From NCBI RefSeq assembly GCF_000025945.1, contig NC_006138.1, positions 30,001 through 62,000 of the forward strand: 32,000 nt of DNA. The letters run 5' to 3'. Below, in pieces: positions 20,437 through 30,672 of the stretch; within the stretch, counting starts at the first letter, position 1; the number at the start of each line of letters is the position of its first letter. Source of the DNA: Desulfotalea psychrophila LSv54 (GTDB taxonomy: Bacteria; Desulfobacterota; Desulfobulbia; Desulfobulbales; Desulfocapsaceae). The notes beneath the pieces are model-generated. The model ran no database searches and was not told the DNA's origin. It was given only the letters and a program-made list of their open reading frames with translations. A program made the position numbers and the translations under genes.

Positions 20437-21226
20437 CCGATTTTTTTCCTTTACCTGCAGAAACACAAGAATATTATTAGATAGAACCTGCACTGTTATA
20501 GGGAAGATCGTTGGGGATTGCAAGAGGAAAAAAGCAAAAAAACAACTACAGTTAACCACAGAGGAAGAAGAGAACACGGAGAAGGACTTTTTTAATTAAA
20601 CTGCTTAAATAAAAACAACACCAACCAAAGGCAGAAAGAACAGCAGCAAGCGTAGCGACGTGGCGAGGACGGCTAACCACAGAGTAGGGGAGGACACTGA
20701 TCCCTTTTAGGTAAAGGACAGGGATTAAAAGTTAACCACTGCTTAAGAGAACACAGAGAAGGACTTTTTTAATTAAACTGCTTAAATAAAAACAACACCA
20801 ACCAAAGGCAGAAAAAGACAACTACAGTTAACCACTGCTTATGAGTACACTGATCTTTTTTAGGTAAAGGACAGGGACTAAAAGTTAACCACTGCTCTGG
20901 AGTACACTGATCCCTTTTAGGTTTAAAAGACCCTTATAGTTAGGTTTTCCCATTGCATCGATTGCAAGGCCTAAACTCACAACCAATGTTCCCAAAAGAA
21001 CTAGCCTTTTAAGCTTTACGCTTTTTAAATAATTTCCTCTGCGATCTCTGTGGTTAACAGTTTTTTTCTGCTTTTCTCGCTTTTAGGTCGTGGTTTTTTA
21101 CCCAAAAATCCTCTGTGTGCTCCGTGATCTCTGTGGTTAACTTCTTTTTTCTGCTTTTTCTCGCTGTTCCTCTCGCCTTTCGCCACTTCGCTGCTATCTT
21201 TTAGGCAGTGGTTGATGCAGTTGTCT
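20437..21226. repeat. Repeat-saturated intergenic region (5 forward units, conserved core, 3 reverse units)
   Basis: GTTAACCAC-type heads lie at 20551, 20672, 20731, 20827 and 20884. The core is at 20931-21010. GTGGTTAAC-type heads lie at 21050, 21133 and 21209 (the last degenerate, GTGGTTGAT). GC-rich companion units lie at 20641-20670 and 21172-21195. Confidence 0.85.
20635..21115. repeat. Palindromic module A, copy 1 (481 bp, carries an extra 153 bp)
   Basis: 20635-20743 is identical by eye to 22197-22305. 20897-21115 is about 95% identical to 22306-22524. The extra 20744-20896 is bounded by the 13-mer GTTAACCACTGCT (20731-20743 and 20884-20896). Confidence 0.8.
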
Positions 21227-21598
21227 TTACAAAACAAGACGTCGAACGCCATCCACCAAGCGAAGCACATTAAAATTGATCAATAATCCAGTATCTACCC
21301 CAGCAAGCTTCATATAGGTCAACACCTGAGCAGTATGAAGTGGCAATAAGGTATCAACCACCTTTAGTTCAACAATGAGTTCATCTGCGACAAGAAGATC
21401 AATACGATATCCCGCATCAATTTCAATATCCTTATACCGGATGGGCAATACAACCTGAGTACGCACAAAAATATTAAGACACTGCAATTCGTACAACAAA
21501 CAGCGTTCATAACTAGATTCGAGTAAACCCGGACCAAGCTGACGATGAACTTCTATAGCACAACCAATCACTGCACCTGTCAACTCTTTAGAATCCAT
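21227..21598 (-). CDS. GxxExxY-family protein (PD-(D/E)XK nuclease-like fold, PDDEXK_3 type)
   Basis: 123 aa from the ATG at 21598, which follows GAGGA. The sequence is MDSKELTGAVIGCAIEVHRQLGPGLLESSYERCLLYEL...IDLLVADELIVELKVVDTLLPLHTAQVLTYMKLAGVDTGLLINFN. The GPGLLESSY motif is the family-defining GxxExxY, and D-x(n)-E-L-K is a PD-(D/E)XK-like core. The track extension to 21679 is translated repeat. Confidence 0.85.
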   Translation of the reverse strand: MDSKELTGAVIGCAIEVHRQLGPGLLESSYERCLLYELQCLNIFVRTQVVLPIRYKDIEIDAGYRIDLLVADELIVELKVVDTLLPLHTAQVLTYMKLAGVDTGLLINFNVLRLVDGVRRLVL

Positions 21599-21702
21599 AA
21601 CATCCTCTATATTTTTGGTCCCAATAATTAAAAACAAAGAAAATTTAACCACAAAAAGAACAGCAAGGACAAAAAGCAAAAGTTAACCACTGCTCTGGAG
21701 AA

Positions 21703-22084
21703 CACAGAGAAGGACTTTTAATTAAAAAGCAGAAAACCTTAAAAATTTTAAACTACTAAGAAAAGACCCAGCCCCTCCATCAGTAGTTCACAAAAAATAA
21801 GGACAAAAAGAAAAAGTTAACCACAGAGGAGGAGGAGAACACTGATCTCTCTTTAATTAAAAAACCTAAAGCTGGAAAAAGAAGAGAATTTACGCACCTC
21901 ACTCCAGTAACACAGGAGTGTTCATCTTTTAGCTTTTTAGCAGTCGCCATTCCACTACGCTCCACTGCTGCTGTTCAGTAGTTCAGCTTTTTAAATAATT
22001 TCCTCTGTGATCTCGGTTGCAGTGGTTAGTCGCTGTTGCTTTAGCTTTTCACCAAAAATCTCTGTGTTCTTGGTGTCAGTGGTT
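21703..22084. repeat. 382-bp direct duplication, copy 1
   Basis: It aligns base for base with 22642-23023 at a constant offset of 939. I found only 3 mismatches, all in 22009-22019. Confidence 0.9.
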
Positions 22085-22196
22085 AACTTCTTTTTTCTGC
22101 TTTTTCTCGCTGTTCCTCTCGCTTTTAGGTCGTGGTTTTTTACAAAAAAAAATCTCTATATTTTTGGTTCCAGTGATTAAAAAAAGACAATAACAA

Positions 22197-22524
22197 AAAG
22201 AACAGCAGCAAGCGTAGCGACGTGGCGAGGACGGCTAACCACAGAGTAGGGGAGGACACTGATCCCTTTTAGGTAAAGGACAGGGATTAAAAGTTAACCA
22301 CTGCTCTGGAGTACACTGATCCCTTTTAGGTAAAAAGACCCTTATAGTTAGGTTTTCCCATTGCATCGATTGCAAGGCCTAAACTCACAACCAATGTTCC
22401 CAAAAGAACTAGCCTTTTGAGCTTTACGCTTTTTAAATAATTTCCTCTGTGCTCTCTGTGGTTAACAGTTTTTTTCAGCTTTTTCTCTCGCTTTTAGGTC
22501 GTGGTTTTTTACCCAAAAATCCTC
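22197..22524. repeat. Palindromic module A, copy 2 (328 bp)
   Basis: See copy 1. The left arm has two forward units (22234, 22293). The right arm has two reverse units (22458, 22541). Read as its reverse complement, the right arm aligns unit for unit with the left arm. Confidence 0.8.
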
Positions 22525-22641
22525 TGTGTTCTCGGTTCCAGTGGTTAGTCGCTGTGGCTTTTTAAATAATTCCCTCTGTGTACTTGGTTGCAGTGATTAA
22601 GTTGAAAAACAAATACTGCTTACCACAGAGGAAGAAGAGAG

Positions 22642-23023
22642 CACAGAGAAGGACTTTTAATTAAAAAGCAGAAAACCTTAAAAATTTTAAACTACTAAGA
22701 AAAGACCCAGCCCCTCCATCAGTAGTTCACAAAAAATAAGGACAAAAAGAAAAAGTTAACCACAGAGGAGGAGGAGAACACTGATCTCTCTTTAATTAAA
22801 AAACCTAAAGCTGGAAAAAGAAGAGAATTTACGCACCTCACTCCAGTAACACAGGAGTGTTCATCTTTTAGCTTTTTAGCAGTCGCCATTCCACTACGCT
22901 CCACTGCTGCTGTTCAGTAGTTCAGCTTTTTAAATAATTTCCTCTGTGTGCTCGGTTCCAGTGGTTAGTCGCTGTTGCTTTAGCTTTTCACCAAAAATCT
23001 CTGTGTTCTTGGTGTCAGTGGTT
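22642..23023. repeat. 382-bp direct duplication, copy 2
   Basis: See 21703-22084. Confidence 0.9.
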
Positions 23024-23096
23024 GGCGTCCTCACCACTCCGCCCTGCTCCGCTGCCGCCACTTCGCTACGCTTGCTGCTGCTTTTTAAATAATTTC

Positions 23097-23123
23097 CTCT
23101 GTGCTCTCTGTGCTCTCTGTGGT
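23097..23123. repeat. 9-nt tandem repeat, 3 units (CTCTGTGCT CTCTGTGCT CTCTGTGGT)
   Basis: Read directly from the sequence. It lies 16 nt from the stop codon of the 355-aa Wzz paralogue. The paralogous site at 25011-25046 has 4 units. Confidence 0.9.
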
Positions 23124-23138
23124 TGATGTGAGATTTTA

Positions 23139-24206
23139 TTACATTGCTTCTTTACGGCGCTGAAGGGCGGTGCGGAGAAGGGCGAGGACAATGGCCAGGA
23201 AGCCGGCAAAGAGGAGTGTGGCGGCAAGAATGAGGGCCTTTTTTGGTTTTATCTTTTCCCCCTCACCCAGAGGATGGGACAGGTACTGGAATCCTTTGAG
23301 ACCGGCAAGATCAGGACTAAAATTCTGCAGCTGTTGCAGACTCGACTGTAGTTGCGTCAAGCCATAGGCCAACCCAGCAGTAGCGGGCATAGAGGCTACT
23401 CCCGCATCCTGCCCCTTGCCAGCAGTTGAGTCCTTCATCGGCCCTACCTGATTCTGCAACTGGATCAAGCTTATCTGGTTTTCCACACTATCCCTATAGC
23501 CCTTGAGAATAATTTGCTGTCCCCCACTTACCTCTGTCACAACACGCTCGTTAACAAATTGCAAAAAGCCTTCAAGCTCACGGGCCAATTTCTCATCACC
23601 ACCACCCCTTAGGCTAATGCCGAGCACGGTGGGATTGGTAATGGATTGATTTTTCTTACCCTGAGGAGCCAAGACCGTAACGGAGAGAGCCCCTTTGAAT
23701 CTGCCTAATTCAGCCTGCAGGCCCTGCTCTGCGGAAAAGGTCTTACCTGTTTTTTTCTGGTAGGCCAACCACATATCACGGGATTTCAGGAGCTGATAGA
23801 CACGGTTAAAACGGTGCTGGGCTAAGAGAGGGTTACTGCCAACAGAGGGCGTGCGCAGAACAAAGGGAAGCTCCATATTGCCATCTTCACCAATCATTTC
23901 AGAGGGAACATTCTCTAGATTTTCCAATGTATCAATCTGCTGATAGAGGGCTGGCAAGAGGGGAGAGGAGACTGCTGAAGGAATCTCTATCTCGGCCGTC
24001 ACCTCATAGGTGGATGGCAGAGCGAGAAGAAGCACAAGGGCGAGGGCACCTATGACAGATACGGCTCCACCAATAAACCAGCGCTGCTGCCAGACATCGA
24101 CAAGCAGGGAGAGGAGGTCGATCTCATCGTCTCGATAATTACTTACCGACAGGGGACACAGGTTAGGTGCTTGGATACTTGAACCTACAGGCCTAGCTTC
24201 ACTCAT
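23139..24206 (-). CDS. wzz: Wzz-type polysaccharide co-polymerase (PCP-1, O-antigen chain-length determinant), paralogue a, 355 aa
   Basis: The start ATG at 24206 lies 5 nt after GGGGAGGA. The N-terminal DDEIDLLSLLVDVWQQRWFIGGAVSVIGALALVLLLAL gives the Wzz N-terminal motif plus TM1. The C-terminal KPKKALILAATLLFAGFLAIVLALLRTALQRR gives the KP-x-x-x-LI motif plus TM2. Confidence 0.8.
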   Translation of the reverse strand: MSEARPVGSSIQAPNLCPLSVSNYRDDEIDLLSLLVDVWQQRWFIGGAVSVIGALALVLLLALPSTYEVTAEIEIPSAVSSPLLPALYQQIDTLENLENVPSEMIGEDGNMELPFVLRTPSVGSNPLLAQHRFNRVYQLLKSRDMWLAYQKKTGKTFSAEQGLQAELGRFKGALSVTVLAPQGKKNQSITNPTVLGISLRGGGDEKLARELEGFLQFVNERVVTEVSGGQQIILKGYRDSVENQISLIQLQNQVGPMKDSTAGKGQDAGVASMPATAGLAYGLTQLQSSLQQLQNFSPDLAGLKGFQYLSHPLGEGEKIKPKKALILAATLLFAGFLAIVLALLRTALQRRKEAM

Positions 24207-25061
24207 TAAAATCCTCCCCAAGAAGTTCCGTACAGAAAAATAGCTTATCTCTTATGTGTATATCATTAACAGGGTGGAATACAAGAGAAAAAAAGACAAA
24301 GAACAGTTAACCACTGCTTAGGAGAACACTGATCTTTTTTAGGATAAAAGACAGGTACTAGATGCTAGCAGTGGAGCACCGCGGAATGGCGGATACTAGA
24401 AAAAGCTGACAAACAGCAGCGAGTAGCAGTGAGTGATAACGAGTGGCGTCAGCAGCGTAGCGGCGAACGAGTGGCGAGCGGAATGGCGAAAAAAGTTAAC
24501 CAGTGCTCAGGAGAACACTGATCTTTTTTAGGTAAAGGACAGGGACTAAAAGTTAACCACTGCTCTGGAGTACACTGATCCCTTTTAGGTAAAAAAAACC
24601 TTATAGTTAGGTTTTCCCATTGCATCGGTTGTAAGGCCTAAACTCACAACCAATGCTCCTAAACAAGTTAGGCTTTTGAGCTTTAGGCTTTTAAAATAAA
24701 TTTCCTCTGTGTCCTCGGTTCCAGTGGTTAACTGCTTTTCTCTTTTTTTTAATCTTTCAAGCAGTGGTAGTGGCAGTTTACAAAAAAAACCTCTGTGTTC
24801 TCATAAGCAGTGGTCAACTTCTTTTTTCTGCTTTTTCTCGCTGTTATTCTCGCTTTTAGGCAGTCGCCACTCCACTCTGCTTCGCTGCTGCTGTGGCAGT
24901 TTACCAAAAAACCTCTGTGAACTCGGTTCCAGTGGTTGGCGTCCTCACCACTCCGCCCTGCTCCGCTGCCGCCACTTCGCTACGCTTGCTGCTGCTTTTT
25001 AAATAATTTCCTCTGTGCTCTCTGTGCTCTCTGTGCTCTCTGTGGTTGATGTGAGATTTTA
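24207..25061. repeat. Repeat-saturated intergenic region including module A copy 3 (about 24495-24732)
   Basis: F heads lie at 24306, 24495 and 24552. A GC-rich companion array lies at 24367-24489. The core is at 24599-24680. R heads lie at 24724, 24810, 24932 and 25042. Confidence 0.85.
25011..25046. repeat. 9-nt tandem repeat, 4 units (CTCTGTGCT x3 + CTCTGTGGT)
   Basis: Read directly from the sequence. It lies 16 nt from the stop codon of the 434-aa Wzz paralogue. Confidence 0.9.
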
Positions 25062-26366
25062 TTACATTGATTCTCTTCGGCGCTGGAGGGCGGTGCGGAG
25101 AAGGGCCAGGGCAACAGCAAGAAAGCAGGAGAGTAAAACTGTGGTGGCAAGGATGAGAGCTTTTTTCGGCTTTATCTTATGCCCACTTCCCGTCGCGGCA
25201 GAATAAACCTGAAGAGCATGAACTCCCTGCAGATCATCGGTGTAAGCATCCAACTGTTGCAGGCGAGAGAGAAGTCCTGGTAGTTCAGCGATATAGGCAT
25301 CATCATCCTTACGAGCCCTGAGCCCGTTAAGCTCACTACTTCCCAGTAAGAGCTCTCTCTTTTCTAGAAGGGGTTGCAGTTGCTGTGCATAAAGTTTTTT
25401 ATCGGAGATCTCTCTTAAAATCTGTATACGCTTCGCCAACACCTCGGTACCCAACAAATATACAGGCATAGCGGTTTGATCAGTTACCATTACCTTGAGA
25501 TTAGAAACATTTCTTTCAGAAATATTATCCATGGAGGTGGGCAACTTTATGCCAAGAGACTCTGCTATAGCATAATTTTCCTGCAAGCGAGTCAAACGAA
25601 CAGCACGGGATCGTAGCACCGAGGCCTTGAGGGCTGAAATTTCCATATCAACCTGTTCAAGATCCTTTTTTTGCTGAGCCAATAGACGGGTAATTCGATT
25701 CCCGCGGTCAACTGAGGCAGCATGGCGCAACAGTCCAATCTTATTATTTATTTCTTTACCCGCTTTCTGAATAACCACCTCCATCTCTTGCTCCACATAG
25801 GCAGCAGCCTTTTTATCCACAAAGAGAACAAATCCCGTCAGTCGCTGTTCTACACTCGTATTATCTCCTCCTCCCCGATAAGAGATGCGCAGCACCGAGG
25901 GATCTGAGACAGCTTTTCCCTTGATAGGTTTTGGGGCCTGAACCTGCACAGAAAGACCAACAAACTCCCCCTGCAATCCCTGAAGTTCTTCATCGGTAAA
26001 CGCCCCCTCCCTATTCCCTTGACGAAAAGTGACCCAACTATCAAAGGATTTTAAGTACTGGGAGACGATGCCAAAACGGTATGATCTAGTCAGCAAGTCC
26101 TGACCTGTAGCCACAGGCACAACCAGGGCAACACTATCGGCTTGACCTATATCCATTCTGGCCTGATAGGTCGATGGAAGGACGAGTAGCACCAGAAAAG
26201 CCACCAAGGTTACGGCCAGAACAATCTTCATAAGAAATTTTCGCTGATCCCAGATATCATGCAACAAACCGAGAAGATCTATTTCATCATTTTGAAAATA
26301 AGGCGATTGTTCTTTATCTCTTCCTCGAAATTCTCTGGCCAATAGCGCTGTCTTATCTTCTTGCAT
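25062..26366 (-). CDS. wzz: Wzz-type polysaccharide co-polymerase, paralogue b, 434 aa
   Basis: The start ATG at 26366 lies 7 nt after AGGAAGG. It has NDEIDLLGLLHDIWDQRKFLMKIVLAVTLVAFLVLLVL and a C-terminal KPKKALILATTVLLSCFLAVALALLRTALQRRR. The central region is collinear with paralogue a but carries about 80 extra heptad-like, Q/L/E/R-rich residues. Confidence 0.8.
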   Translation of the reverse strand: MQEDKTALLAREFRGRDKEQSPYFQNDEIDLLGLLHDIWDQRKFLMKIVLAVTLVAFLVLLVLPSTYQARMDIGQADSVALVVPVATGQDLLTRSYRFGIVSQYLKSFDSWVTFRQGNREGAFTDEELQGLQGEFVGLSVQVQAPKPIKGKAVSDPSVLRISYRGGGDNTSVEQRLTGFVLFVDKKAAAYVEQEMEVVIQKAGKEINNKIGLLRHAASVDRGNRITRLLAQQKKDLEQVDMEISALKASVLRSRAVRLTRLQENYAIAESLGIKLPTSMDNISERNVSNLKVMVTDQTAMPVYLLGTEVLAKRIQILREISDKKLYAQQLQPLLEKRELLLGSSELNGLRARKDDDAYIAELPGLLSRLQQLDAYTDDLQGVHALQVYSAATGSGHKIKPKKALILATTVLLSCFLAVALALLRTALQRRRESM

Positions 26367-26844
26367 AAAATACCTTCCTTGCATGGTAATAACTCATAAG
26401 AACTACAAAATAAAAAGACAACTACAGTTAACCACTGCCTTGAGGACACGGAGAAAGACTTTTTAGGTAAACTGCTTAAAAACAGAAATAAAACCTTGAA
26501 CTTTAAAATCTTTTTATCTTTAAGTTTCTTACTCCGCTTTCCTGCTGCTTTTTAAATAATTTCCTCTGTGTTCTTCAGCCAGTGGTTAATCCATTCGATT
26601 TTCTCGCTATTTCTCTCGCCTTTCGCCACTTCGCTACTACCTTTTAGGTAGTGGCTTTTTACCAAAAAATCTCTGTGTGCTTGGTTGCAGTGGTTAGCCC
26701 TTTCCTGCTGTTATATTTTCTCGCTGTTGTCGTTGCTGTTGTAGTTACTTTTCGCTTTTCGCTTTTTAAATAATTTCCTCTGTGTACCTGGTGTCAGTGG
26801 TTAACCTTTTTGGGGCAGGCACTGCGGAAAGAGAAGAGCAGGAG
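26367..26844. repeat. Repeat-saturated intergenic region
   Basis: An F head lies at 26427. R heads lie at 26582, 26690 and 26797. CTTTTTAAATAATTTCC tails lie at 26548 and 26762. A companion unit lies at 26616-26639. Confidence 0.8.
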
Positions 26845-26874
26845 GCCCCTTCCCCTGTTGAGAGGGGAAGGGGC
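26845..26874 (-). terminator. GC-rich perfect hairpin immediately downstream of the 514-aa Wzz-like gene (candidate terminator or RNA stabiliser; no U-tract)
   Basis: CCCCTTCCCCT (26846-26856) pairs perfectly with AGGGGAAGGGG (26863-26873) across a 6-nt loop. It lies 12 nt from the stop at 26886. The following sequence on the minus strand is CCTCCTGCTCTTC, not a T-run. Confidence 0.4.
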
Positions 26875-26885
26875 TGAGGCAAGGC

Positions 26886-28430
26886 CTATTTAAAGCTTTG
26901 CCCTCTTCTTCTCAGGGCAGAAAAGAGAAGGGCGGCGATAAAAATCATACCTAGTGCCAACATGCCAAAGGCTACCTCCAGTAGAATTATTTTTTTCGCT
27001 TCGTAAACCCCGGCCTGCCTCTTCTGGACTGGCCCGACAATGGTATACATCGTCTGGGATGGCTTGAGGTAGAGTTGACAAACTTCTTTATAGATAGTGC
27101 TTACTCCCTCAACTACTGCGACAAGATTCTCCTGTATTTGTAAAATATCTCCATTAACAATGGCAAATTTTTCATCTGCACTCAGGCGCTTGGCCAGGTC
27201 ATTCTCCGGAGTATTCTTCATATTCTGATAAAAACTGATATCAGACTCTACCCCGGCAAGATCAGTTCCCTCGGCAATAATACGCTTCATCAAGCCCTGA
27301 CGAAACTGTGCTTCGGCACTTTCGTTGGTCAACTTCACCAGGCGATCCAAAAAGGCATCGCCAATTTGCGGGATCATACTCCCCCCACTAGCAGACAGAC
27401 TTGAATTGCCACCAGCTCCAGAGCGAGAACTTCTGGTTGCCCTATTTTGGATATAGGCCTCCATGGCGTCCTCAACAACCCTTATACGTTTTTCAATTTC
27501 AACTCTTTTCCGATTAAGGGCATCCAACCGATAATCAATATAGAGGAGGGCCTGGTTTTTTTCCTTGAAGACCCCAAGTCCCCAAATTTTTGCAAAGAGA
27601 TTTTTAAAGGCAAACAGCTGAATATCTTTTATCTCACTCTGCAAATCGGCAATCGTTCCACGGTCGCCACGCAACAAATCAGCCCCCGGGAGTGCCTCTA
27701 CCCCCTTGGCGAATCCTTCAACCCTCTGCAGCACCAAGCGGTAGCGATCGGCGATGATCATAAACTCACTCTCCGACATATCCCGTAAAATCGCACTAGA
27801 AGAGATTATTGGAATAGAGTATTGAAAAATCCCCTTACTCTCCTTCGAATAATTGGCCCACCCCTCCAATAATTGGGTCAGAACAATCTCTGCAATATCA
27901 TAGGGAATGGCATCGCCAGCCATCCTCAGGAAATAGGGCGCCGAGGCCATTAAAGACCGCTTATCGGCAAGATACTCCTTATGCAAAACACCCCACTGCT
28001 CCGAGGACATTTTTTTAGAGGCTGTTGCTGCTAAAAATCGTTGTTCTAAAATGAGCATGCCCCTACTATCCTTAAGTACAGTAAGAGAGGCCTGAAAATC
28101 TTTAAAGCTGAGATATTCAGCAAGTTGTTTTTCTTCATAAACGGCCCGAAGAATAGGCGTTTCCAGCAGGTCTCTCACCTTAAAGCTCATGCCATTGGGA
28201 TACTCCCCGCTAGCCGCCCCGGCAAAACTAAAATGAACAGGCAGATCAACCACGCGCATCTCTTTTTTACTGAGCAAAAAGGCTGCCGAGGAGGCCATGA
28301 GGAAAAAGAGACAGGCAATAGCAATGGTGATCCATCTGCGACAGGACCATAAGTCCCTAAATATGGTAGTTAAATCTATACAATCATCATCTGCATGCCG
28401 CACAACATCAAGGGCTTTGGACTGGTCCAT
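26886..28430 (-). CDS. PCP/Wzz-like membrane protein, paralogue c, 514 aa (divergent)
   Basis: The start ATG at 28430 lies 8 nt after GGAG (MDQSKALDVV...). DDCIDLTTIFRDLWSCRRWITIAIACLFFLMASSAAFLL gives a Wzz-like N-terminal motif plus TM1. A long helical middle region follows, then the C-terminal TM ILLEVAFGMLALGMIFIAALLFSALRRR. The track extension to 28550 (..FFSVFSSSSVVN..) is translated repeat. Confidence 0.6.
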   Translation of the reverse strand: MDQSKALDVVRHADDDCIDLTTIFRDLWSCRRWITIAIACLFFLMASSAAFLLSKKEMRVVDLPVHFSFAGAASGEYPNGMSFKVRDLLETPILRAVYEEKQLAEYLSFKDFQASLTVLKDSRGMLILEQRFLAATASKKMSSEQWGVLHKEYLADKRSLMASAPYFLRMAGDAIPYDIAEIVLTQLLEGWANYSKESKGIFQYSIPIISSSAILRDMSESEFMIIADRYRLVLQRVEGFAKGVEALPGADLLRGDRGTIADLQSEIKDIQLFAFKNLFAKIWGLGVFKEKNQALLYIDYRLDALNRKRVEIEKRIRVVEDAMEAYIQNRATRSSRSGAGGNSSLSASGGSMIPQIGDAFLDRLVKLTNESAEAQFRQGLMKRIIAEGTDLAGVESDISFYQNMKNTPENDLAKRLSADEKFAIVNGDILQIQENLVAVVEGVSTIYKEVCQLYLKPSQTMYTIVGPVQKRQAGVYEAKKIILLEVAFGMLALGMIFIAALLFSALRRRGQSFK

Positions 28431-28900
28431 AACAAAACTCCATATTAAAAAACAAAAAAAACTACGGTTAACCACAGAGGAAGAGGAGAACACAGAGAAA
28501 AACATTTTATGTAAACTGCTTAAAACAAAAAGACAAGAACTATTAATCACTGGTGGAGAACACTGATTTCATTTTATGTAAACTGCAGAAAAGACAGATA
28601 CTAGATACGACAGATATAAGATACTAGATGCGAGAAAGAGCAGAAAAAGCGAAGGACAGTTAACCACTGCTTAAGAGCACACTGATTTCAGTTTAGGCAA
28701 AGGACGAAAATCTAACAGCAACCAAGGGCACGGCAAAACATCTCTGGCAACAAATCGTTAAAACTAGAGCTATCTAGCAGTTATCTTTTTACCAAAAAAT
28801 CTCTGTGTACTCTGTGAACTCTGTGGTTAACTTTTTTCTGTCTCTCTGTTCTTGATTGCCAGTGGTTAACTTTTTTTTACATTTGGCAAGGAATTGTTTA
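28431..28900. repeat. Repeat-rich divergent intergenic region between the Wzz-like gene c and nfo
   Basis: F heads lie at 28467, 28542 (degenerate) and 28659. GATACTAGAT-type short repeats lie at about 28597-28630. R heads lie at 28823 and 28862. Confidence 0.8.
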
Positions 28901-28937
28901 AAGTGGGTTTTGGGAATAATTACCAACAAGCTGTCCT

Positions 28938-28943
28938 TATAAT
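28938..28943 (+). promoter_or_regulatory. Possible -10 hexamer (TATAAT) for nfo
   Basis: A perfect TATAAT lies 24 nt upstream of the nfo ATG. No convincing -35 is present at 17-bp spacing, so this is weak. Confidence 0.25.
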
Positions 28944-28966
28944 AAAATAGCCACAAGAGGAAGAGG

Positions 28967-29845
28967 ATGAAATATATCGGTGCCCATGTGAGTGCGGCGG
29001 GAGGGGTTGAAAATGCTCCGAAAAATGCGGTTGCAATAGGGGCCAATGCCTTTGCCCTTTTCACCAAGAACCAACGACAATGGAAGGCCAAGCCCTTAAC
29101 GGAGGAGAGTATTGCCGCCTTTAAAGAGAATTTGACAGAGGCCGGGATAGAGGCCAGACATGTCCTCCCCCATGACTCCTATCTGATCAACCTGGGGCAT
29201 CCCGAGGCCGAGGCTCTGGAAAAATCACGGGGAGCATTTATGGACGAGCTGGGGCGATGCGCCCAGCTTGGACTACCCCTGCTCAACTTCCATCCCGGCA
29301 GTCACCTAAAAAAAATTGATCCGGAGGCCTGTCTGGATCGTATTGCCGAGAGCATTAATCTGGCCCATGGGTCGGTGGCAGATGTGATAACCGTTATTGA
29401 AAACACGGCGGGCCAAGGAACTAATCTGGGCTATCGCTTTGAGCATCTGGCCAGGATAATAGCGGCTGTTGAGGATAAGTCGCGGGTGGGAGTCTGCATT
29501 GATACCTGCCACGCCTTCGCCGCCGGCTATGACCTGCGCACTGTAGAGGCATGCGAGAAGAGCTGGGCTGAATTTGACCGGATCGTGGGCTTTAAATATC
29601 TGCGGGGCATGCATCTCAATGATGCCAAGAGTGAATTTTTCAGTCGGGTTGACCGGCACCAGAGTTTGGGGGCGGGAAATATTGGCTGGGAGGCATTTCG
29701 CTATATTATGAAGGATGATCGTTTTGATGATATCCCTCTCATCCTTGAAACTGTGGACACTAGCCTCTGGCAGGAAGAAATTAAAAAACTACAGCAGTGG
29801 AGCGTAGTGGAATGGCGAGAACTAGAAAAAACAAAGACAAGTTAA
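28967..29845 (+). CDS. nfo: Endonuclease IV (AP endonuclease)
   Basis: 292 aa. [13 protein letters not shown]...[13 protein letters not shown]...LLNFHPGSH...[44 protein letters not shown]...[29 protein letters not shown] is collinear with E. coli Nfo. The last ~12 codons and the stop lie inside repeat units. Confidence 0.95.
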
Positions 29846-30060
29846 CCACAGAGGAAGAGGAGTACACAGAGAAAAACTCTTTAATTAAAAAACAAAAAAC
29901 CTTAAAGATTAAACAATTAGGAAAAGAAAAATGTTCCCCTCCATCAGTAGCTCACCCAAAGCCCTCTGTGTTCTTCAGCCAGTGGTTAACGCTGTTCGTC
30001 TTTAAGCAGTTAGCAGTTCACCAAAAAACCTCTGTGTTCTCTGTGGTGATGTAGTTGTCT
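29841..30060. repeat. 150-bp forward/reverse unit pair (29841-29990) plus one more reverse unit
   Basis: The left end reads GTTAACCACAGAGGAAGAGGAGTACACAGAG. The reverse complement of the right end reads GTTAACCACTGGCTGAAGAACACAGAGGGC. A degenerate R head lies at 30043 (GTGGTGATG). Confidence 0.8.
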
Positions 30061-30428
30061 TTACAAAACAAGACGTCGAACGCCATCCACCAAGCGAAGC
30101 ACATTAAAATTGATCAATAATCCAGTATGTACCCCAGCAAGCTTCATATAGGTCAACACCTGAGCAGTATGAAGTGGCAACAATGCTTCCACCACCTTCA
30201 GTTCAATAATGAGCTCATCAACGACAAGAAGATCAATACGATATCCCGCATCAATCTCAATTCCCTTATAGCGAAGAGGTAACATAACCTGAGTACGCAC
30301 AGCATGAGACCTTACAACTCATACAGCAAACAACGTTCATAGCTTGATTCAAGCAAACCAGGACCAAGCTCACGATCAACTTCTATAGCACAACCAATCA
30401 CTACGCCTGTCAACTCTTTGGCATCCAT
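30061..30428 (-). pseudogene. GxxExxY-family gene, inactivated (in-frame TAA at codon 39 plus a 4-nt deletion)
   Basis: The ATG at 30428 opens MDAKELTGVVIGCAIEVDRELGPGLLESSYERCLLYEL, followed by TAA (30314-30312). Relative to the intact copy, 24 nt are replaced by 20 nt, which shifts the frame. The downstream ORF 30061-30300 encodes the C-terminal two thirds. Confidence 0.85.
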
Positions 30429-30672
30429 AGCATCCTCTGTGTTCTTGGTCTCAATAATTAAAAACAAAGATAAGAACAGAAAAAACTACAGTTAACCACA
30501 GAGAAAAGGAGTTCACAGAGAAGAGCATTATAGATAAACTGCTTAAAGACAAAAAACAAAGATCAACTACTATAGTAGTTATCAATGTCCCCAAAAGAAC
30601 TAGGTATTTAATCTTTATTTTTACTACTTTTAAATAATTTCCTCTGTGTCCTCTTCTTCCTCTGTGGTTAAC
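30429..30672. repeat. Repeat-rich intergenic region between the GxxExxY pseudogene and ddl
   Basis: A degenerate R-like unit lies at 30431-30460. An F head lies at 30491. A 16-bp perfect palindrome lies at 30565-30580. The unit CTTTTAAATAATTTCCTCTGTGTCCTCTTCTTCCTCTGTGGTTAAC spans 30627-30672. Confidence 0.8.

Follow-up and report, generated by a model that had tools for sequence, protein, structure and literature searches.

Within the polysaccharide locus of Desulfotalea psychrophila LSv54, a small gene of the GxxExxY family is surrounded by copies of a short intergenic repeat. We asked whether the gene and the repeats belong together or merely share the same stretch of DNA. A sequence-only reading of this locus had described the arrangement as REPtron-like, with the encoded nuclease as the protein that might recognize or propagate the repeats. 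It had also offered an alternative, in which the gene is simply a passenger. We addressed the question in the window, by which we mean the whole stretch of 32,000 nucleotides that was analyzed, and among relatives of the gene in other genomes and on metagenome contigs. We find that gene and repeat are indeed linked, across the family and in a clade-specific way, as in REPIN/RAYT pairs.

The Desulfotalea window

The window covers a polysaccharide-synthesis locus with a Polysacc_synt_2 gene, a UDP-glucose dehydrogenase, an asparagine synthase-family gene (PF00733), a flippase-family gene (PF01943), two Wzz-like genes (23139-24221 and 25062-26384), and Ddl. Genes are closely spaced over about the first 20.4 kb. 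Between 20551 and 30672, a short unit with the head GTTAACCAC fills all of the intergenic spaces. When at most one mismatch was allowed, this head had 34 matches in the window compared to 5.1 expected, and 32 of the 34 fell within 20551-30672. The full unit has the form GTTAACCAC-AGAG-(degenerate 9-mer)-AACAC-AGAG, and many units carry a ACACTGATC variant. This unit is one arm of the kind that frames GxxExxY genes elsewhere, and we refer to it as an arm. The repeat-laden intergenic DNA contains about 30 arms, distributed over both strands, along with larger duplicated blocks.

Among these blocks, a 300-nt sequence is present twice at 100% identity (21698-21997 and 22637-22936); the copies are 939 nt apart, and each includes one arm and a 61-codon open reading frame. 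A 193-nt block containing ..CCTTATAGTTAGGTTTTCCCATTGCATCGATTGCAAGGCC.. occurs three times (20843-21035, 22251-22443, and 24510-24702) at 70 to 100% identity and had no Rfam match. The 3' ends of the two Wzz-like genes are also duplicated together with the adjoining downstream DNA (22986-23261 and 24900-25184; 84 to 91% identity), pointing to a segmental duplication within the repeat-laden DNA. A search for tRNA genes found none. A search of the window against Rfam 15 at the gathering threshold returned no match to arms or hairpins, and a search at an E-value threshold, which covered 10 loci and 20.4-31 kb of the window, returned no match. The core consensus of integron attC sites is GTTRRRY. 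We rejected an attC reading of the repeats because GTTAACC does not fit this core.

The GxxExxY gene occupies 21227-21598 on the minus strand. As the sequence-only reading had stated, it is intact, with an uninterrupted translation of 123 amino acids. The protein matches PF13366 (E = 1.4e-41; 141.9 bits against a cutoff of 22), which is its sole Pfam match, and TIGR04256 (E = 1.2e-41; 141.8 bits against a cutoff of 35). Its assignment to a family with a PD-(D/E)XK-type nuclease fold is confirmed by the PF13366 match, by the GxxExxY motif, which reads GLLESSY in this protein, and by E27, D67, E77, and K79 (the D...ExK catalytic residues), which were invariant across 35 and 45 sequences. An AlphaFold2 model of the protein had a mean pLDDT of 89. 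With this model, Foldseek returned only weak PD-(D/E)XK matches (E of 5e-3 or higher), including Cas4 SSO0001, lambda exonuclease, and the nuclease domains of AddAB; the match to I-Bth0305I was also weak. Neither sequence nor profile searches revealed a related solved structure in the Protein Data Bank, and the protein matched neither the PADLOC models for anti-phage defence nor the PHROGs models for phages. Exact-sequence look-ups with the protein and its 95% paralogue (P0002) found no record. The family is listed in a survey of the PD-(D/E)XK superfamily, where its function is given as unknown.

There is a second, decayed copy of the gene at 30061-30428 on the minus strand, also noted earlier, which carries a 4-nt deletion and stop codons. 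It lies in a duplicated block (30047-30473) that corresponds to 21213-21643 at 86 to 91% identity. Alignment with this copy identified a degenerate same-strand arm that abuts the start codon of the intact gene (21599-21629, minus strand). Within this arm, AGAGGA at 21603-21608, located 4 nt upstream of the ATG, acts as the Shine-Dalgarno sequence. Read on the gene strand, the start region is ..ATAGAGGATGTTATG in the intact copy and ..GAACACAGAGGATGCTATG in the decayed copy. Since the decayed copy still reads ACCAAGAACACAGAGGATGCTATG, the AGAGGA that precedes the start codon represents a unit's tail, just as had been proposed.

Arms lie on the other side of the intact gene as well. Just 3' of the stop codon is a degenerate arm head (21205-21225, minus strand; GACAACTGCATCAACCACTGC on the gene strand), which includes the degenerate head GTGGTTGAT at about 21208-21216 and a AGACAACTACA lead-in that also precedes the full units at 20551, 20827, and 26427. 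Beyond it are a full arm (21110-21141, minus strand; GTTAACCACAGAGATCACGGAGCACACAGAGG on the gene strand), which contains GTGGTTAAC at 21133-21141, and the arm GTTAACCACAGAGATCGCAGAGGA (21035-21058, minus strand). Upstream of the gene, and opposite to it in orientation, are the degenerate arm head TTTAACCAC (21644-21652, plus strand) and the full arm GTTAACCACTGCTCTGGAGAACACAGAGAAGGAC (21682-21715, plus strand), with GTTAACCAC at 21682-21690. The decayed copy has an arm directly 3' of its stop (30029-30052, minus strand; CATCACCACAGAGAACACAGAGG on the gene strand) and an arm tail directly 5' of its start (30430-30452, minus strand; GAGACCAAGAACACAGAGGATGC on the gene strand).

In both copies, then, the innermost flanks are on the gene's own strand and are direct, not inverted, repeats. 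The sequence-only reading had located every unit correctly, but its description of the gene as bracketed by inverted units applies only to the outer ones, the inverted pair of the intact gene being 21110-21141 (minus strand) and 21682-21715 (plus strand). This bracket is present, with an inverted-match score of 11 (GTGGTTAACTT). However, 10.7% of random 372-nt placements in 20.6-30.6 kb scored 10 or higher. The score is within chance for so dense an array, and therefore no association between gene and repeat can be concluded from the window alone. At this point, the passenger alternative could be entertained. According to it, gene and repeats coincide because they share the dispensable intergenic DNA of a variable polysaccharide locus, and it is favored both by a bracket that is not above chance and by units that occupy all intergenic spaces between 20.5 and 30.7 kb.

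Inverted arms frame GxxExxY genes in many phyla

A first lead came from a relative (65% identical) on an unrelated metagenome contig. This gene follows gyrA and has CCACAGAG/ACACAGAG motifs on both sides. To characterize the arrangement more broadly, we used 80 loci from species-level genomes that encode relatives with 51 to 68% identity, of which 78 were scored; no Desulfotalea locus was part of this set. Hosts include Planctomycetota, Verrucomicrobiota, Bacteroidota, Desulfobacterota, Gamma-, Alpha-, and Betaproteobacteria, Omnitrophota, Hydrogenedentes, and Chloroflexota, as well as one candidate-phyla-radiation bacterium and one archaeon. In most loci, an arm such as TTCACCACGAAGGACACGAAGGGCACGAAGG lies shortly 5' of the start codon, and its reverse complement lies shortly 3' of the stop codon.

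We scored such brackets as ungapped inverted matches within 130 nt of both gene ends. Of the 78 genome loci, 51 scored at least 12, 40 scored 15 or higher, and 26 scored 20 or higher. Among control placements in the same loci (n = 1,134), 0.5% reached 12 and none reached 15. Independent metagenome contigs gave comparable results, with scores of at least 12, 15, and 20 in 52, 40, and 21 of 74 contigs, respectively. Across about 1.1 Mb of genome loci, arm pairs enclosing 150 to 2,500 nt almost all enclosed a GxxExxY gene, and several loci had no arms other than the pair at the gene. The suspected link between gene and repeat thus holds well beyond the window. A passenger relationship accounts neither for a frequency of 65 to 70% against 0.5% in controls nor for loci that have no arms apart from the flanking pair. 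About one-third of GxxExxY genes, for example those of Colwellia, lack detectable arms. The framing of the other two-thirds points to a previously undescribed selfish cassette composed of a gene plus repeats, and literature searches that used the family names, the accessions, and the motif strings uncovered no account of this arrangement.

An arm usually consists of three copies of a 7-mer with a period of mostly 9 nt, and its outer end reads T-n-n-A-C-CAC. The 7-mer has the general form C-R-C-N-R-A-G, with a core that varies by locus (CACAGAG, CACGAAG, CACGGAG, CGCAGAG, CGCAAAG, and others) and that agrees between the two arms of one gene. The T-n-n-A-C-CAC end usually points outward; the orientation is reversed in loci L124 and L126 and in the window. 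Between paired arms, the cores were 95% matched, whereas the 2-nt linkers were matched at 50% compared to 39% for shuffled partners. What is conserved is therefore the repeated 7-mer, and not a continuous duplex. By this description, the window contains an intact cassette, atypically arranged, together with a decayed one and numerous leftover arms. Pseudogenised or tandem GxxExxY copies are common across loci, which fits a dispensable, selfish gene.

Some loci depart from the simple plan. In L178 (1408-3366), two GxxExxY cassettes stand in tandem, each with its own arms, and the reading frame of the first enters the downstream arm and stops at that arm's terminal TGA. In L126, a long tandem run of CTTTATCT lies just downstream of the gene's 3' arm.

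A frame of complementary arms could also serve the gene in cis. Under this explanation, the arms are control elements of a horizontally acquired gene that are read by host machinery, and the target of the nuclease is unrelated to them. Pairing of the arms would either mask the ribosome-binding site or generate a processing site by which insert and host operon are separated; fold-back inhibition in IS10 and the excision of rRNA intervening sequences are parallels. In many loci, the last core and an A-rich stretch lie about 4 to 30 nt before the start and read AGAGGA or GAAGGA. In addition, the gene is co-oriented with co-directional neighbors in 32 of 41 cases, at about 95 nt from each neighbor, and the cores of paired arms are complementary. 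Given this co-orientation and an upstream arm that acts as a ribosome-binding site, RNA-level roles are plausible. However, complementarity of the linkers is barely above chance, and mismatches on the sense strand did not clearly favor G.U (63) over A.C (49). Furthermore, no other gene family is enclosed in the same way within the genome loci, and the arms have no match to an Rfam family.

Arm type follows the protein

CACGAAG arms were found at 19 loci, 18 of which belong to a single protein clade whose hosts are spread over several phyla. For 95 cassettes, the core type required 19 Fitch steps on the protein tree, far fewer than in 1,000 permutations (mean, 40.6; minimum, 35). Meanwhile, both arm types are present within the Omnitrophota, the Hydrogenedentes, and the Desulfobacterales. 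Because the same phyla contain both types and the type follows the protein tree, a host-encoded reader is hard to uphold, and we consider cis control of this kind unlikely.

The match extends to arms that do not flank the gene. Dispersed arms up to several kb away agreed with the type of the local cassette by 53 to 2 and 12 to 0 (Fisher P = 1.5e-11). Together with the framing of the gene across genomes, the covariation of arm type with protein clade and the matching dispersed arms argue strongly against the passenger alternative, which we now regard as highly improbable.

A polymorphic insertion site in Bacteroides

In Bacteroides, the gap between radA and the gene for a FAD-dependent protein occurs in four states. 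In the empty state (L211), the two genes are separated by 13 nt, TGA tTCACCAtaagct ATG. Four loci (L206, L214, L215, and L217) contain a CACAGAG cassette at this position. Another (L216) carries a cassette of the CGCAGAG type. Its protein shares only 53% identity with that of L206, in contrast to 89% identity for radA. The remaining state is a geneless insert of about 80 nt with tandem CACTGAT repeats (L212:2868-2949), next to a radA with 98% identity to the B. finegoldii gene. The boundaries of the indels at this site are the outer ends of the arms. The empty site retains TTCACCA, the first bases of an arm, and comparison of filled and empty states at this single site revealed no target-site duplication.

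In a possible homing variant, dispersed hairpins would have come first. The nuclease would cut an empty hairpin, and repair would copy the gene into its loop, so that the arms are the two halves of a target site and not part of the element. The fetched loci contain 53 arm pairs with loops of less than 100 nt, and gene-filled and empty hairpins lie side by side in L154 and L129. Homing endonucleases of the PD-(D/E)XK type are known, one of which, I-Bth0305I, is among the weak structural matches, and the TTCACCA kept at the empty Bacteroides site also speaks for this variant. However, that empty site is only 13 nt long and has no hairpin, and several loci have no other arm. The variant also leaves the spread of the geneless hairpins themselves without an explanation. 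For these reasons, we find it distinctly unlikely.

Two sets of geneless hairpins share a feature of their own. In L129, where the hairpin lies 3' of the gene, and in L133, where hairpins lie on both sides of it, the arms differ in type and the loop ATATTGAGTCYTTT is common to both. The hosts are a Thiohalocapsa genome and a Planctomycetota genome. The common loop suggests that the short hairpin is a conserved element in itself.

Paralogues within a genome looked about 75 to 85% identical in nucleotide alignments; we saw no near-identical copies within a genome and no recent transposition among the sequences compared. A Colwellia protein (P0100) was encoded in the same context, between rmlA and rmlC, in all 23 contigs read, and thus gives no sign of recent movement. 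In Colwellia polaris and related contigs (L203 to L205), the gene resides in a polysaccharide locus, as it does in the window, and purine-rich GGAGGAA-type repeats are found downstream in place of CAC-type arms.

A candidate selfish cassette and known mobile systems

By analogy with REPIN/RAYT pairs, we propose that the gene and its arms constitute one selfish cassette in which the nuclease reads its own 7-mers, a proposal to which we give about an even chance of being correct. Gene and flanking arms would make up a single unit of about 450 to 480 bp that is inherited, lost, and replaced as a whole. The PD-(D/E)XK nuclease would bind the 7-mers specific to its clade, and the geneless hairpins and single arms elsewhere in the genome would be derivatives or targets of the same system. 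Operation of the cassette may be akin to that of REPIN/RAYT pairs or of a free-standing homing-endonuclease gene. The purine-rich upstream arm would also supply the ribosome-binding site, which the complementary downstream arm could mask in read-through transcripts. We observed the architecture of the cassette, the covariation of arm type with the protein tree, and a polymorphic insertion site; binding, cleavage, and propagation by the protein are what we infer. Several observations count against the cassette. A PD-(D/E)XK nuclease alone cannot rejoin DNA, and covariation would also be expected if gene and arms merely travel together. Recent transposition and target-site duplication were not seen in the comparisons above. 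In addition, about a third of the genes have no detectable arms, and the orientation of the arms is not fixed.

The earlier comparison to a REPtron (REP/REPIN plus RAYT) is apt in part. As in REPtrons, a small single gene is flanked by inverted copies of a dispersed intergenic repeat, the type of repeat is specific to the gene clade, and the gene seems to be mostly vertically inherited, with no near-identical paralogues seen. The resemblance does not extend to the components. RAYT belongs to the HUH/Y1 transposases of the IS200/IS605 type, whereas GxxExxY is a PD-(D/E)XK nuclease, and the cassette has no HUH gene. While REPs are single imperfect palindromes of 20 to 40 nt, the arms are purine-rich tandem 7-mers that lack internal dyad symmetry. 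Unlike in REPtrons, many of the fetched GxxExxY loci, which span about 20 kb or less, have no arms beyond the two at the gene.

Homing-endonuclease genes, including seg and mob of phage T4, I-Ssp6803I, and I-Bth0305I, are similar in that a small nuclease gene sits between conserved genes in the same orientation. They also vary in presence among close relatives and frequently decay, and for GxxExxY such presence and absence is seen at the Bacteroides radA site. In contrast, homing-endonuclease genes have no frame of inverted repeat arrays and leave no dispersed repeat family.

Insertion sequences and MITEs, including Correia elements, share with the cassette inverted ends of about 27 to 30 nt with multiple subrepeats, as well as short geneless derivatives. 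Like the ends involved in IS10 fold-back inhibition, the arms would be able to mask a ribosome-binding site in read-through RNA. However, the GxxExxY cassette has no recognized transposase class (DDE, HUH, serine, or tyrosine), and it differs further in showing no target-site duplication and no near-identical copies within a genome. The intervening sequences of 23S rRNA that carry an open reading frame (PF05635) likewise enclose a small reading frame by complementary arms in a host transcript. The GxxExxY cassette differs from them in lying outside rRNA, in having unmatched linkers, and in encoding another protein family.

Arms in viral contigs and in published sequences

Arms were also found in viral contigs. 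The 22-base pattern of three CACAGAG copies, CCACAGAGNNCACAGAGNNCACAGAG, occurs in at least 120 viral-contig stretches (IMG/VR; L003 to L122). None of these stretches contained a GxxExxY gene, and a protein-pattern scan of the viral-contig collection found no relative of the family. Arms therefore also exist without a neighboring gene, which is a further point against the cassette. In these contigs, arms often directly follow a stop codon, with the next start a short distance beyond, and they sometimes form hairpins. Single arms lean toward the sense strand (29 to 14), a bias that favors cis control. The same contigs contain sister motifs such as CACGAAG, CACGGAT, and CGCAGAT, among others. 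Geneless arms in viruses are consistent with an action in trans, with remnants of cassettes, or with a function of their own.

A broader version of the cassette proposal, which we put forward tentatively and rate as less likely than not, would cover these sequences as well. GxxExxY proteins may be sequence-specific nucleases, each clade with its own 7-mer, that drive minimal selfish cassettes not previously recognized across phyla. The intergenic and viral arrays of CACAGAG, CACGAAG, and CGCAGAG with a 9-nt period would then be footprints of such cassettes or derivatives mobilized in trans. The family (PF13366/TIGR04256) is very large, with at least 8,000 proteins at E ≤ 1e-10. The cassette reading would suggest where a short and widespread intergenic repeat comes from, one that gene callers render as spurious peptides. 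The family would also supply small sequence-specific nucleases, provided that its proteins read programmable 7-mers.

We also looked for traces of the arms in published work. The multicopy sequences described in a paper on Geobacter metallireducens are of other types and were set aside. In a study of Bacteroides fragilis (PMC3090145), the primer BF2782 ON-Rev, which is placed just upstream of a capsule gene, contains CACCACAGAGAACACAGAG, so the arm motif is present in the genome of this species too.
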